Shown here one piece after another: positions 31,301-34,642 of a stretch of DNA of 64,000 nt. Source of the DNA: an uncultured Clostridia bacterium. Lineage in GTDB: Bacteria > Bacillota > Clostridia > Christensenellales > UBA1242. The stretch's first letter is position 1. Each line of letters opens with the position of its first letter. Below the pieces are notes generated by a model. It was not told the origin of the DNA, did not search any database, and saw only the letters and a list, made by a program, of their open reading frames with translations. Position numbers and translations under genes: made by a program. The stretch covers positions 339 to 64,338 of the forward strand of contig CAKVLG010000002.1 in NCBI GenBank assembly GCA_934756675.1, written 5' to 3'.

Positions 31301-32222
31301 ATCGTTCGACACGCAAGACGAGTCGCAAACGCTTGACGATATATATGCTCCAGTTGGCACAACATTTGTTTTACCAACACTTAAAAACAAGTTTGTTAAC
31401 CAAGCAAGAAAGACTTATGAATACGCCTTTGATTATTGGACTCTTAATGGCGAAAGGGTAGCAAGTGGTGTTGTTTATAACCAAAGCGAAACACTTGTTG
31501 CGATATATAAACTTATTGCTGTCACAGACCAAAAGTTTGTGTTAACAATTGTTTCTGGCGGCAAGGTGGCTATTAAAACAAGAATAATAATGAACTCAGC
31601 CTTTGATCCATATACTCATGACGGAGTATTAAGCACAACATTGTTCTATAGCGATGATAGCTTCAAAAACCAAGTTTTGGAATTTATTATGCCAGAAAGC
31701 GACTTAACAATTTATGCTAGAAATAAGTATACAATTTCGTTTACAGATGCATACGGCTTAACAATTGCTAGCGTAACAGAATACGAAGGCAACACTGTAA
31801 GCCTTGAAACATTGAGCAAATCATATACAGATAATGGCAAACAAGAAAAACGCGTGTTCTATAAGTTCAATGGATACATATATAATAACACGCTATACAC
31901 AGATTCAATAACCATGATGCATGGTGGCGGAACGCTTGCTACATCGTGGTCAGAGAGCTACAAATATTACTACACTGTTTCGTTTAATATAAAAACAGCA
32001 ACAGGACGACATGTGTATTACTATGGTGGTGCTCCAAACTCATATAGGGTGCTTGAAGGCGAAAAAATTAACGCGCCTACAAGTGGACCAACATGTTACT
32101 ATATCTTGTTCAAAAAGAGATATTTGACCTTCAAAGGTTGGACACTTAATGGCAATACTGTTACACAATCTACAACAATGCCTAGTGGTGGGGATATTGT
32201 GTTGAAGGCAGTATGGAACTAG
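25371..32222 (+). CDS. Giant N-terminally anchored surface protein: about 8 repeated modules of roughly 190 aa plus C-terminal Listeria-Bacteroides (InlB B / Flg_new-type) repeats
   Basis: ATG at 25371 (SD GGGGG 9 nt upstream), whereas the track starts at the TTG at 25368. TM helix TFLVYVLTFLVVTFCSAFLTV. Recurrent motifs are x-Y/F-I-x-S-K/R-x-Y and iY-v/i-dFdG-x-k-l-k-a. The C-terminus has FSGWY, FDYWT, FNGYIY and FKGWT repeats. Confidence 0.8.
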   Translation: MKRKHKKLKKTFLVYVLTFLVVTFCSAFLTVTVNYDSYFLNNSSLFLSNTQETGDSSALSSTVASLMSMRGGVVNVVMAAGNEAGDTLDVDASIKLRMQGGIENIEVGADVILYFNNEPFSISATYIGGWLYLSVNDSNFKMQVNSLAQSVQSILGLIGMNMGDAGSLGSMFDMNALMGLASDMKEVATDFGTKMEISSDNVNVSMNVDNDFMLKSIDIANVSVGDYFAHGEIVMSDINSSNISIEPASNENEYNDVTPAIRLINGIMSIPTGDFSASVVSNLGFESKFDVLYDMSAQGGKISTRAGQIDFDTYIIRNNVYFNSGNARIKVEDLKTYDFTKILFEILEKVGVNSSSDIKSQLDLSKISDINFSEIDLGKFFDLISVDDDKLTISAYGKNFNFEFDGDRIKKFYIDNLVSINFDYSATELVFENYGYVAISDMEWVIKPITEFLTTKKMSFDIYANIDGEDYELNVRLDFIEKNAIEIIGELFGKSFDIIVDEQYILLNIGGERTKIDKSRLTETILELADKYAFSKEINFSFDLNTVINSLLQLTYADQNSLTFENNDFEISYSAAGTISLIGNLLGKNVNILLIKEDSARDVRYYNHNQFADFMFTSDLAKNTKKYIESREYNIDLSARIDGKDVTADVYANLNDNYYAARVTYSGETISVISDNDTYYIAYRQFKFFGSMENAMNMLAGFLAEQNGNDKFASFVSDLMLSIKDKYAGTDILKLLTETRIGKIKITDNVFELNMIKFAGLEDLFDLEKLTIGLEIENKNIHKIYASYGDMNASILIKNEQVQRLTDSEKQSYTVDLDKLVRVGKNVYDYAKNGEYILQVDITYDNYSISGKVAVIDNEIKTDLLVVAGEYEIGLKLIDKMLYVNFENLAISAKLGDADKIIALLEKLGIDTNKIKETLNGIKPELPEINDKTLVDMLAKVDLDKFIFSCSDQTYILGYGDYKLIVSSENDMITGVSTNMRGVNANIQLIDDFAIDLTGEYLSLENLLSLAENEIEYIKSKDYAFEIRLIYGDYDIFGHLYYGDSGWSAELETFVSGKLLKIKIIQKNIYIDFDGFKLKADKDSYVEVMQMAEKYVGIKLPDLNNLSVDSVLDLYNQIKAKLEEFGVTIPALSKDNLKKNDTNINDVLSKLYIDKMSGGYKVTYDGVEVVVLENDNKLSSLEIIANGLQLYIQKTTSKDVDINDKYLDGTKLLQVFDKTIKTIESKSMSGTISVDFVFENIVHQANILYNINFENLDDIRAKLEVEFKGLTAEIVYINKMIYFDVVGLKFQAGLSDYDNIAEFVKSRFGIDISLDELKGKSLNDLHFDFVENAEFNDDYVIFNFKNDLNLRLDYNGDKIKQCNFSQGTTNAKISLVPMQKITIDEVASNKYLSYTKLFDLADSVRDFINSRQFNVNAKALVYEDVNKIRYNVDIGLAIDALISGNIQALGNASVYDGNGKPLYTNVRAALEDQKIYVDFDGLRLSISQDKLREIMVIALSALGIDTSSIPWLGAVDDDMKFVPDNLKNFMPVMNFDTLGMLRIIKSMNITGNHFEIVLDGALVVNGAEKDMRVAIDFAGNKINKLKLYNIYSGVSQTEYFDLTINFNEFEGVEQIEKVNDKGRGFIDISDSSELIRAFINTSELDNYTLNGKIKFNISNFSMNAPISITVKNLPNGKTVAQISVKEIPMIAGVNGSFAGDREFNVYMYDDIVYLYRVDDENHLFFREKVEKKLALTIDQFMGDILKYICEFGLGFKEGGLIMNAINKALNNKRPDNEPIDMSNVLLGYNKEGSNAHKLILNMKEIAYNDDLDTMIVTLYTINNAITGNKDYLYKLAFALNIDVGINMSLTTDDLTLDYANKNANVNAALDYINGYGYKIGECYKISDGKANLESNIQYTANFYDGSNMVRSGKYNAKQTLDLSAITRPDGVVNGIKYSYTFSGWYLDANFETLAPSTMPTHDINLYAKFERTAWRYVSFDTQDESQTLDDIYAPVGTTFVLPTLKNKFVNQARKTYEYAFDYWTLNGERVASGVVYNQSETLVAIYKLIAVTDQKFVLTIVSGGKVAIKTRIIMNSAFDPYTHDGVLSTTLFYSDDSFKNQVLEFIMPESDLTIYARNKYTISFTDAYGLTIASVTEYEGNTVSLETLSKSYTDNGKQEKRVFYKFNGYIYNNTLYTDSITMMHGGGTLATSWSESYKYYYTVSFNIKTATGRHVYYYGGAPNSYRVLEGEKINAPTSGPTCYYILFKKRYLTFKGWTLNGNTVTQSTTMPSGGDIVLKAVWN

Positions 32223-32265
32223 TTTTCGCGGCAAAATTTTGCATTCTAGTTCAGAAATTAAAAAA

Positions 32266-32317
32266 AGCTCAGACAGTTATGTACGTTTAAGTACACGTCT
32301 GCCTGAGATTTTTTTAT
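32266..32317 (+). terminator. Rho-independent terminator after the giant gene
   Basis: Long stem CTCAGACAG...CTGCCTGAG with an inner GTAC/GTAC pairing, followed by TTTTTTT. Confidence 0.65.
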
Positions 32318-32360
32318 TTCTTTCTATAAAACTTCTTCGCTTTCTGCACCTGTGCCTTGC

Positions 32361-32495
32361 TTCAGAATACGCCGCACCTTGACTTTCTTTACTCGTCTTT
32401 CACTTAAACAAGAACGCGGATAGGAAACCCTTATCCGCAACCTTGTTTAAGCAAAATCCATCGTAAATCTAAGTCAATCTGCTGCTTTATACTAC
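32361..32495. repeat. Long imperfect hairpin made of two inverted copies of a roughly 35-nt repeat
   Basis: Core stems CTTAAACAAG / CTTGTTTAAG and GCGGATAGG / CCTTATCCGC, extended outward by GACTT/AAGTC, TTTAC/GTAAA and GCCGCA../..TGCTGC pairings. Confidence 0.7.
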
Positions 32496-32545
32496 ACAAT
32501 GTATTTTTTGTTAACATTGTATTAAGTTGCCACTCATCTATAGTC

Positions 32546-32693
32546 CCTGTCATCTTGAGCAAGGCGGTAGCCGCGTCGAAAAATCTCCTTTGTACATTTA
32601 ATTCTGTAAATTTATTAATCAGTTTTTTATTTACATTGTGCGTAGCATGAAGTAGATCTTTCGATTCCGCGTTGCTCCGCTCAAGATGACAGG
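32546..32693. repeat. 148-nt MITE/REP-like element with perfect 15-bp terminal inverted repeats
   Basis: CCTGTCATCTTGAGC at 32546-32560 and GCTCAAGATGACAGG at 32679-32693. The sub-terminal TCGAAAAATCT and AGATCTTTCGA segments are also complementary. Confidence 0.75.
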
Positions 32694-32750
32694 AACTGTG
32701 AGCTGAAAACTACTACAGTGCAAGCTTAAAAGTTGTCTCGCATTCATTAT

Positions 32751-32809
32751 GATCAAAATGACAGGGTGGGGTAATCGAAGGTTTGTGTTGCTCCGTTTAA
32801 GATGACGAG
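32751..32809. repeat. Two further partial copies of the same repeat family
   Basis: GATCAAAATGACAGG and TCGAAGGTTTGTGTTGCTCCGTTTAAGATGACGAG resemble the right arm ...TCGATTCCGCGTTGCTCCGCTCAAGATGACAGG. Confidence 0.6.
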
Positions 32810-32857
32810 CGTTGGTGGTCTGGTGCTATAAAAAATATTTATATTGTGTTTTATTGT

Positions 32858-32885
32858 TTGATTTTTTTGATTTGTTTGCTATAAT
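32858..32885 (+). promoter_or_regulatory. Putative sigma-A promoter placed for a leaderless transcript
   Basis: TTGATT, 16-nt spacer, TGC-TATAAT. The -10 box ends 7 nt before the ATG at 32893 and no SD is present. Confidence 0.45.
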
Positions 32886-32892
32886 ACAAATT

Positions 32893-33450
32893 ATGACTTT
32901 AACTTATATTTTATCGCAAGTGTTTGTTTTAATCGCTGTTTTATTCTTTTGTTCAACGTATTTTACAAAGAATCGTACGGTTATTTTGATTTGCAGAATT
33001 TTTTGTGCGATGTCGTATGTGGTTGTATATATTTTGCTTGGCGCATACACTGGTGTGGCTATTAATGTTATTTCTGTTATGCAAATTATTGTTTTTTATT
33101 TTTTCAATAAAAAAGACAAGCATGTGCCACTATATTTATTTATAATTTTTGAGGCTATGTATTTTGCTGCAAGTGTTATAACTTGGAGCGGATGGGTGTC
33201 TGTTTTAATGATGGTTGGTAGCATGGTAGATTTTTACACCATTTGGCAAACGGACATAAAGGTCTATCGTTTGGTTGGTGTTTTGCCTAGCGTTTTGTTC
33301 ATTGGTTATGACATTGCGTATCGTTCGTATGTGTCTGTTGGGTTCGATGCGGTTGTTCTAATTATAAAAATCATTAGCGTAATTAACATTTTTAAGCGAC
33401 CAAAACCACAAGCCAATCAAGACGAAATTAAACAAACCCCCTTGCAATAA
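32893..33450 (+). CDS. YgjV-like multi-pass inner membrane protein
   Basis: About 185 aa with 5-6 TM helices. The N-terminal pattern ILSQVFVLIAVLFFCSTYFTKNRT...LLGAYTGVAINVIS is collinear with E. coli YgjV as I recall it. The track start (TTG at 32812) was rejected. Confidence 0.5.
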   Translation: MTLTYILSQVFVLIAVLFFCSTYFTKNRTVILICRIFCAMSYVVVYILLGAYTGVAINVISVMQIIVFYFFNKKDKHVPLYLFIIFEAMYFAASVITWSGWVSVLMMVGSMVDFYTIWQTDIKVYRLVGVLPSVLFIGYDIAYRSYVSVGFDAVVLIIKIISVINIFKRPKPQANQDEIKQTPLQ

Positions 33451-33487: not shown

Positions 33488-34642
33488 ATGGAACAAACAA
33501 TAAAAAGTCTTTTGATAGAAAAATATGGTTTTTCGGAAGCTGAGGCAGACAAGGTTATTCGCATTTCGCGTATGCGTGATGCCGAACTTGTTGGTGACAA
33601 ACTTGACAAAATTTTTAAATTTCTTGACATAGGGTCAGACAAAAATACTCAAAAATCTATTATTACCAGGTGGCCACAAGTGTTAAACACAAGTGTGGAA
33701 GCTTTTGCAAGCAAGGCAGAGTTTTATAGCAATGAATATGGCATCAACAAAACAAAGTTTGCTAAAATGGCTTGCAGAAATTTCTCTGTTATCAACTCTA
33801 GCGAAAAGAAAGTAAAAGAGATAGAAAAATACTATACCGAAAAGTGGCACATGACAAAGGAAGAGTTTGTTAAAAAAATGTTGCGTGTGCCAGCGCTTGT
33901 TGGGTTTCCGCCAAGCACAATAGATAGCAGATTTAACACTTTGAAAGAAGAATATGACATGCAAGAATACGAGTTCGAAAAAATGGTTAAAAGTGCTTCG
34001 AACTTTCCAGTTATGAGTGTGGAAGATATCCATGACTTGCAAGAATTTTACGCACGCGAATTTGGAATAACAAAAGGCGATTTCCGCAGAATGCTTATGT
34101 CAATTAAGCCACTTACTTATGGAACTAATAAAGTGTTAAACGGATATAAAAAAATCGCTGAAAAACACGATATTTCGGCTGAAGAGTATGGCAGCATGCT
34201 TGTTAAATGTCCAACACTTTTGGGGTTTAGCCCTGCAATGATAGATGCTAAATTCAAAAAGTATGCAGAGCTTGGCATTGACGATGAGAGCCTTGTGCAC
34301 TATCCAAGGGCACTTGTTCCAAACCCAGACTGTTTGAAAATGCGATATATGTTCGGCAAAATTCATGGTTTGTCTGATACCGACTTTTTGAATCGCGGTT
34401 TTATGTGTAGCGAGAAACGACTTTTTGCAAGGTCGATGTACATGCGAGAAGTTGGTTTGTCTAAGAGTTATTTGTATTACAGCGAAGGTAAGTTCTTAAA
34501 GCGCACTGGTGTTAGCAGCAAAACGCTTGAAAAAGAAAATCAATATACAAGTGCCGTGAAAAAAGCTATTTGCGAAAGATATAACAATATATTTGGCACC
34601 AATGTTGAATTAACAGAAGGGGAACTAAATTATGAAAGTTAG
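33488..34642 (+). CDS. Helical-repeat protein resembling the mTERF family (hypothetical)
   Basis: Recurrent units of about 30-35 aa of the type G-[FI]-[ST]-x3-[FI]-x2-[MI]-[LI]-x2-x-P-x-[LV]-[LV]-x-[FT]-[SP]-x3-[IL]-x3-[FL], for example WPQVLNTSVEAFASKAEFY, VPALVGFPPSTIDSRFNTL and CPTLLGFSPAMIDAKFKKY. Confidence 0.45.
   Translation: MEQTIKSLLIEKYGFSEAEADKVIRISRMRDAELVGDKLDKIFKFLDIGSDKNTQKSIITRWPQVLNTSVEAFASKAEFYSNEYGINKTKFAKMACRNFSVINSSEKKVKEIEKYYTEKWHMTKEEFVKKMLRVPALVGFPPSTIDSRFNTLKEEYDMQEYEFEKMVKSASNFPVMSVEDIHDLQEFYAREFGITKGDFRRMLMSIKPLTYGTNKVLNGYKKIAEKHDISAEEYGSMLVKCPTLLGFSPAMIDAKFKKYAELGIDDESLVHYPRALVPNPDCLKMRYMFGKIHGLSDTDFLNRGFMCSEKRLFARSMYMREVGLSKSYLYYSEGKFLKRTGVSSKTLEKENQYTSAVKKAICERYNNIFGTNVELTEGELNYES

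Follow-up and report, generated by a model that had tools for sequence, protein, structure and literature searches.

Within the window, a 64,000-nucleotide stretch of DNA from an uncultured Clostridia bacterium, a giant surface-protein gene is separated from a YgjV-family gene by a spacer of ~600-670 nt, of which ~610 nt (32223-32835) consist of dispersed repeats. The giant gene encodes 2284 amino acids and ends in a TAG stop codon on the plus strand (32220-32222), and the next base is the start of module T (T1 subtype, 32223-32329). Module A (32330-32535) follows as a long imperfect hairpin of ~200 nt with copies elsewhere in the genome. It is succeeded by module B (32542-32697), a MITE-like element with inverted ends, and by module C (32698-32809), which comprises a small hairpin (AACTGTG...CAGT) and two right-end half copies of the B end motif. 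The series closes with module D (32810-32835), a truncated linker (GTTGGTGGTCTGGTGCTATAAAAAAT) that also occurs after B-type ends in several other clusters. A promoter-like site for the YgjV-family gene (32858-32885, plus strand; TTGATT, 16 nt, TG-n-TATAAT) lies outside the repeats and is kept in all strains compared. The ATG at 32893, behind this conserved promoter, is the likely start of the gene. Gene callers vary in where they begin it, at a TTG in module D (211 aa), at ATG 32893 (185 aa) or further downstream (146 aa), and in one strain the gene is called at 250 aa; the open reading frame region extends over 32812-33450.

Repeat families of the spacer

The spacer is a mosaic of small dispersed repeats that are non-coding, form hairpins and adjoin one another end to end. 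By BLAST and nhmmer, no fewer than three unrelated families (T, A and B/C) can be told apart, and the copies of each form a separate set. An earlier note on this DNA had described about six copies of one ~35-nt family, but the arms of A and B have only the octamer AACGCGGA in common. The local alignment score of the two arms is equalled by 113 of 5000 shuffles, and the octamer is missing from most other B copies. The individual inverted and direct repeats reported in that note were all found where it had placed them. Its limits for the block (32330-32810) must be moved outward to 32223, directly 3' of the stop codon, and to ~32835. What it called the giant-gene terminator, ahead of the block, is itself one of the repeats (module T). 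As it had also observed, the block has no open reading frame of 60 aa or more, the longest being 47, 43 and 41 aa. The "visibly higher" GC content is indeed raised, but only slightly (0.39-0.43 compared to a genome mean of 0.345).

The genome that was searched with the block by BLAST and nhmmer comprises 1,025,498 bases in 14 contigs, is 97.7% complete and has ~34.5% GC. The modules recur in other intergenic clusters, so they are not absent elsewhere, and all of their copies fall within ~14 such clusters of 300-1100 nt. These clusters typically span the end of one gene to the promoter of the next. From the cluster lengths, the repeats can be roughly estimated to make up ~0.7% of the genome. 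One cluster (C8:49317-50414) is situated directly downstream of the 23S-5S rRNA genes, with an adjoining region at L012:1941-3112 (G000 C8:50461-51632). T-type elements thus follow RNA genes as well.

When folded as DNA, modules T, A and B are far more stable than shuffled sequences (z = -4.5, -6.4 and -6.5, respectively), and none of the 200 shuffles used for such scores folded as well as the native sequence. Module C, or the last 130 nt of the block, does not fold as a whole (z = +1.5). The BIME/MITE-like architecture proposed in the earlier note is borne out by hairpin-forming units that stand head-to-head and tail-to-tail, are dispersed in the genome and vary between strains.

Module T and its stop-codon junctions

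A full T copy is a ~128-nt palindrome with TTTTCGCGGCAAAATTTTG and CAAAATTTTGCCGCGAAAA at its two ends. Some 20 nt separate these ends from an A-run on the left and a T-run on the right, which enclose a stem in which an inner hairpin is nested. The copy in the window has the left inverted end (TTTTCGCGGCAAAATTTTG at 32223-32241) and the A-run, nested hairpin and T-run (about 32253-32321). Its right inverted end is missing because module A abuts there. There are ~18 copies of T in the genome by nhmmer. Those at C2:124401, C4:32055, C4:44202, C4:69370 and C10:722 are 93-95% identical, and weaker ones occur besides. Three subtypes can be distinguished by compensated changes that affect the two stems and also the inverted ends, and the latter measure 16-19 nt in full copies such as C2:124411-124538.

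The succession of A-run, hairpin and T-run in the window copy looks like a two-way terminator. Its stem CTCAGACAG...CTGCCTGAG lies between A7 and T7 and is located 31 nt 3' of the stop codon, as in an intrinsic terminator. A simple terminator scanner missed this stem because of the nested inner hairpin. With this configuration, module T probably supplies the predicted transcription terminator of the giant gene.

At no fewer than nine loci (a count that is to be read as at least nine), a T end abuts or overlaps the TAA or TAG of the upstream gene. A TAG is followed directly by TTTTCGCGGC in the window and at C6:40993, a TAA by TTTTCTCGGC at C2:124410, and a TAA by TTTAACG 3' of the L32 gene (C10). 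In the junction T-TAA-GGCTCAAATTT, the stop codon lies inside the T end. Two T copies with readable flanks have TAA on both sides, namely C2:124408-124541 (TAA at 124408 and 124539) and the copy after the L32 gene on C10. This flanking TAA suggests, but does not prove, a target duplication; the flanks of the other T copies are unreadable, since further repeats adjoin them. A clean candidate for a target-site duplication is seen in these two T copies only, and none is seen for A, B and C, because they abut one another. If the TAA duplication is real, it would let an insertion at a stop codon leave the gene intact. T-type elements appear to settle on or beside TAA and TAG stop codons, possibly duplicating TAA, and this one repeat family would provide terminators exactly at stop codons.

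The invariant part of T is the tip of its hairpin (ACAGTYAYNTAC-loop-GTANRYNCCTG), not its ends. A search of 185,579 species genomes for the paired T ends as an exact pattern returned no match. The tip pattern ACAGTTAYRTAC-N4-10-GTAYRCGCCTGC was found at 70 loci in ~20 named gut and rumen MAGs, and the hosts include Ructibacterium, Ca. Caccopulliclostridium, 'Christensenella sp. UBA4636' and unnamed Clostridia. A looser form of the pattern is present in 16 of 151 family genomes at 1-25 copies each, and its reversed control gives no match in any of them. The arms next to the tip comprise 44 different 8-mers among 71 loci. They are nonetheless complementary, with 7.2 of 8 positions paired compared to 4.2 if each arm is matched with one from another locus. 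A dif/Xer-like site in the tip was also considered and set aside, as no 11-6-11 match could be recognized by eye.

While its arms vary, the T tip keeps an unpaired asymmetric 3x3 internal loop (T-T/C-A opposite C-G/T-C), as would be expected for a recognised structure. This loop could indicate that the repeats are host-selected protein-binding or insulator cassettes, for which mTERF-like proteins, one of them encoded 650 nt downstream, would be one candidate binder. Genes of the mTERF family are present here; across the family they occur in 28 of 151 genomes, compared to none of 14 well-known control genomes. However, only 6 of the 16 T-tip genomes have an mTERF match, a lack of consistent co-occurrence for which mTERF was rejected as a partner of T. 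The T-rich genomes G014, G027, G107 and G136 (5-12 copies) are among those without a match, and the module content at the site is not kept between strains. Host-selected cassettes are the most doubtful of the explanations considered here, and we regard them as very unlikely.

This bacterium encodes mTERF-family proteins (Pfam mTERF) at 33488-34642 of the window and at G000 C2:99074-99559. The family that carries mTERF consists of ~1-Mb gut Clostridia, and the presence of mTERF among them does not track T-type repeats.

A different account of the tip is conceivable, although unlikely. T could belong to a wide, undescribed superfamily of palindromes in gut and rumen Clostridia, in which a structure-recognising enzyme outside the known transposase families moves ready-made terminators, and A, B and C would then be passengers at the same hot-spots. 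A superfamily of this type would point to an enzyme that acts on single-stranded DNA or RNA. It is the part of these observations that could lead to a new mobilising enzyme.

Modules A to D and the possibility of an RNA gene

Module A forms a long imperfect hairpin (32371-32485). Its hairpin arms (32398-32422 and 32432-32456) and outer arms (32371-32385 and 32471-32485) together make up a hairpin of ~135 nt, with apical stems at 32403-32412/32442-32451 and 32416-32424/32429-32438. Folded as RNA, a 206-nt stretch of this module scores z = -6.1 on the plus strand and z = -7.9 on the minus strand. Three further copies (C4:31751-31950, C4:43727-43929 and C9:26239-26424) are 90-95% identical over ~200 nt and 93-98% identical over the central 135 nt. 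A diverged copy (C1:37198-37309) is 78% identical, and a 43-nt A tip is found twice on C13 with 100% identity. The tally for the genome is four full copies and three partial or diverged ones. In comparison with the diverged C1 copy, both partners have changed in six base pairs of the hairpin without loss of pairing.

These features raise the possibility that A is a multi-copy small-RNA gene of ~230 nt on the minus strand that is ended by the two-way terminator of T, with the other modules being incidental. The favorable minus-strand fold, the near identity of the hairpin in all four copies and the six base pairs maintained by double changes agree with this idea, and T comes after A on the minus strand in two of the four loci. 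However, the other two loci have no terminator after A, and no promoter-like site was found on either strand of A, where the best -35/-10 candidates are 14 nt apart. A has no Rfam family, and a strain whose flanks are 99% identical retains no more than 40 nt of it. By BLAST, neither A nor B was found in 60 relatives, and both are found in this species only. We think it quite improbable that A is a gene of this kind.

An Rfam 15 search of the window modules gave no family match, even at E up to 10, so that the block is not reclassified as a known RNA. The best Rfam hit in the block is Rhino_CRE, at 21 bits (gathering score 45, E = 0.35). In 13 other clusters, nothing was found on the repeats at E <= 0.1. 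A promoter scan found no promoter-like site inside the block, and the sites it reported were outside the repeats or weak. The suggestion of the earlier note that the block could be one or more structured RNAs thus finds no support, given that there is no Rfam match and no internal promoter-like site and that A is lost in one strain. Pairing in the A and T hairpins is maintained through double substitutions, which shows that structure is under selection, as it would also be in a functional RNA. Setting aside the terminator role of T, the repeats are most likely neutral or selfish DNA and not genes for dedicated RNAs.

Some relatives of A are associated with tRNA genes. The diverged C1 copy and the two C13 tip copies occur in small units directly downstream of tRNA-Glu(CUC) and tRNA-Cys. 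There are two tandem 296-nt units at tRNA-Cys (L010:1306-2019; G000 C13:2898-3611) and one unit of ~330 nt at tRNA-Glu(CUC) (L006:1443-1849; G000 C1:37140-37546). Each of these closes with a second copy of the 3'-terminal 24-29 nt of its tRNA (duplicated stretches of 24 and 29 nt), and a terminator follows. A 164-nt unit of the same design, but with unrelated sequence, is found at tRNA-Thr(CGT) (C3:83826). From their arrangement, the tRNA-linked units look like miniature integrated elements or att scars.

CIMEs are integrative elements that retain only the att sites. The A-like units at tRNA-Cys and tRNA-Glu resemble them in being bounded by a duplicated tRNA 3' end and in having no recombinase gene, but they are only ~300 nt long, and the A copy of the window is not at a tRNA gene. 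Because the tRNA-linked units bear the signature of tRNA 3'-end integration, the ancestor of A may have been the attachment region of such an integrative element. This suggests that A is a hairpin cassette, possibly with such an ancestry. It is an internal long hairpin without inverted ends, and it lacks the inverted repeats of a MITE.

A more far-reaching proposal is that the block, or at least A, is a scar of site-specific integrative elements (CIME-like att arms) that was later recombined into other spacers. The A-like sequence in units with duplicated tRNA ends and the similarly designed unit at a third tRNA both speak for this origin, as do remnants of tyrosine recombinase genes in the genome, where there are three matches, two of them fragments. 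Against it, the four high-identity A copies, including that of the window, have no adjoining tRNA fragment. There is also no integrase gene beside any unit, and T and B have inverted ends and no att-like direct repeats. The chance that the block originated as such a scar is slim. A sub-threshold Rfam match to Gut-1 RNA (L006:1321-1389; G000 C1:37018-37086, minus strand; 43 bits, gathering score 50, E = 2.6e-5) lies a short way past the tRNA-Glu-linked unit and does not overlap the repeat modules.

Module B corresponds to the 148-nt element of the earlier note. Its ends (32542-32560 and 32679-32697) are 19 nt long and 95% complementary, and they include the perfect 15-mers that delimit that element. 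The inverted ends (C)AGTCCCTGTCATCTTGAGC and GCTCAAGATGACAGGAACT enclose an AT-rich centre, and the sub-terminal pair TCGAAAAATCT and AGATCTTTCGA is complementary at 10 of 11 positions. Members of the family have ends of the form (CAGTR)CCTGTCATCTTGAGC and an AT-rich centre; their sub-terminal stem is variable, and a TCGAAAGATCTAC box is conserved. Variants of 145 nt and 245 nt have the same ends, and the longer one carries an insert of ~100 nt. There are ~8 paired elements in the genome. Allowing up to three mismatches, the 15-nt end motif occurs at 38 sites, ~26 of which are within clusters. The end motif CYGTCATYTTGAGC is present 11 times in this genome compared to 0-2 times per genome in 150 family relatives. 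The reversed control pattern has no match here, one match in one relative and no other. In JGI metagenomes, a B-arm 30-mer and an A 21-mer returned no matches except for one chance match within an unrelated gene.

Additional right-arm copies of B lie at 32753-32765 (92%) and 32787-32809 (77-90%), and the half copies of the B end motif in module C span 32751-32765 and 32795-32809. Stretches homologous to C are found at C1:5839-5986, C4:43936-44058, C1:68416-68499 and C1:99942-100052. The D linker (GGTGGTCTGGTGCTA...) is located 3' of B-type ends in other clusters too. B and C are probably non-autonomous MITE-like elements that would be recognised through their ~20-nt inverted ends. Two other ideas about B were discarded. 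No tRNA of this genome matches the TTCGATT-like motifs that might have derived the B arms from a tRNA 3' half, and a hammerhead-like core in the ~100-nt insert of long B has no Rfam ribozyme match at those loci.

Strain variation, possible movement and related systems

Contigs from other strains were reached through the YgjV protein cluster. The block copies are unlikely to be assembly artefacts because five independent assemblies contain the block. Contigs L060, L063 and L064, with flanks 98.3-100% identical, have the same T-A-B-C chain with few substitutions, and L059 and L066 differ in single arms. Contig L065, with flanks 98.6-99.0% identical, has a spacer of 739 nt in which the T subtypes and the B variant are different ones and only 40 nt of A are left. 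In every strain the variable region has identical limits, namely the first base 3' of the stop codon and, towards ygjV, the sequence GGTGCTATAAAAAAT that precedes the promoter. The module set at this site differs between strains of the species. In L065, the difference is a wholesale exchange of modules rather than a clean insertion compared to an empty site, so homologous recombination could explain it without transposition.

In G001, which represents the sister species and is the sole further genome of the genus, proteins are 40-43% identical to those here, and ygjV and the mTERF-like gene are neighbours as in the window. Its upstream gene ends 85 nt before ygjV, and this 85-nt spacer holds only a simple terminator and a promoter. 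The converse situation also exists: G001 has a T-type element 3' of a gene whose orthologue here has a plain terminator.

The spacer is most likely an accretion hot-spot at which hairpin-forming, non-autonomous repeats pile up and are exchanged among strains. In the mechanism that we propose, T would settle on TAA or TAG and would give the giant gene its terminator, and B and C would be mobilised as non-autonomous elements by means of their ~20-nt inverted ends. The modules might then be spread or reshuffled either by an enzyme that is supplied in trans and is absent from the assembly or by recombination or gene conversion among the copies.

Searches for DDE_Tnp_1 (IS4/IS5), DDE_3 (IS630), rve (IS3-type), Y1_Tnp (RAYT/IS200) and the TnpB zinc-ribbon gave no match in the 97.7%-complete assembly, which signifies absence from the assembly only, as IS copies can drop out of MAGs. 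The same search for Y1_Tnp (PF01797) found 0 in this genome compared to matches in 6 of 14 control genomes. A longer element that shares the ends of the modules was not seen in the genome. In a six-frame search, a 518-aa open reading frame (L147:1004-2985; G000 C1:245664-247645) has a weak RVT_1 match of 32 bits. On either side of it is an 84-nt direct repeat (82% identity between the two), and the pair resembles duplicated gene 3' ends. This reverse transcriptase-like frame was dismissed as a link to retro-elements, as a Pfam hmmscan of the whole frame gave nothing.

The modules share most, but not all, of the characteristics of MITEs. They are non-coding, shorter than ~300 bp and dispersed in several copies (T is ~128 nt with ~18 copies, and B is 145 or 245 nt). 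Terminal inverted repeats are present in B and T. Presence and absence at the same site among strains or species is seen in L065, in the 85-nt spacer of G001 and in the T-type element of G001. A parent IS or a trans-acting transposase is missing from the assembly. Overall, the modules are probably undescribed members of the MITE, REP/BIME or BOX/SPRITE kind of repeat.

ERIC/IRU elements of enterobacteria and Correia elements of Neisseria are intergenic, imperfect palindromes of ~100-150 nt over their whole length with inverted ends. Correia elements cause a duplication of TA, and transcripts can end or start in them. T is similar to both in size and build, but it differs from them in sequence and host phylum and in having copies directly on stop codons. 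In addition, the part of the T family that is conserved across genera is the hairpin tip and not the ends.

The closest known systems are the enterobacterial REP/BIME mosaics and the pneumococcal BOX/RUP/SPRITE trio. Like the modules described here, the REP, BIME and REPIN sequences of Proteobacteria are extragenic hairpin units in alternating orientation that belong to lineage-specific families, and they form mosaics with other short motifs mostly just 3' of genes (PMC2817692, PMC3116915, PMC3733652). REPs are 20-40 nt long, usually exist in more than 100 copies, have GTAG or CGTC at the head and are accompanied by a RAYT gene (PMC2817692, PMC3116915, PMC3733652). In contrast, the modules here measure 107-250 nt and have about 7-26 copies, no module end starts with GTAG or CGTC, and there is no Y1_Tnp/RAYT gene in the genome. 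They therefore lack the defining features of REP-RAYT systems.

The BOX, RUP and SPRITE repeats of Streptococcus pneumoniae offer a parallel in which several unrelated families of less than 200-250 bp coexist in one small Firmicute genome and are rare or absent in related species (PMC3049150). The modular build of the repeats here recalls boxA-B-C, and SPRITE is like T in being terminator-like and enriched directly after coding sequences (PMC3049150). For SPRITE, too, neither a matching IS nor a target duplication has been established (PMC3049150). Its inverted ends are only AAAA/TTTT (PMC3049150), whereas T has 19-nt ends and a nested hairpin. There is no sequence similarity between the pneumococcal repeats and the modules, which pile up in a few hot-spots and are not singly scattered.

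In annotation, the window spacer and ~13 similar ones should be treated neither as small-RNA genes nor as regulatory regions. Even in a streamlined 1-Mb gut Clostridia genome without a recognisable transposase, several small-repeat families are still turning over among strains, and the hot-spots could be used as strain-typing markers for this uncultured organism. Several short-read assemblies of the species (L059, L061, L062 and L066) break within the block upstream of ygjV. Because several public contigs end within it, the repeat block explains these assembly breaks.
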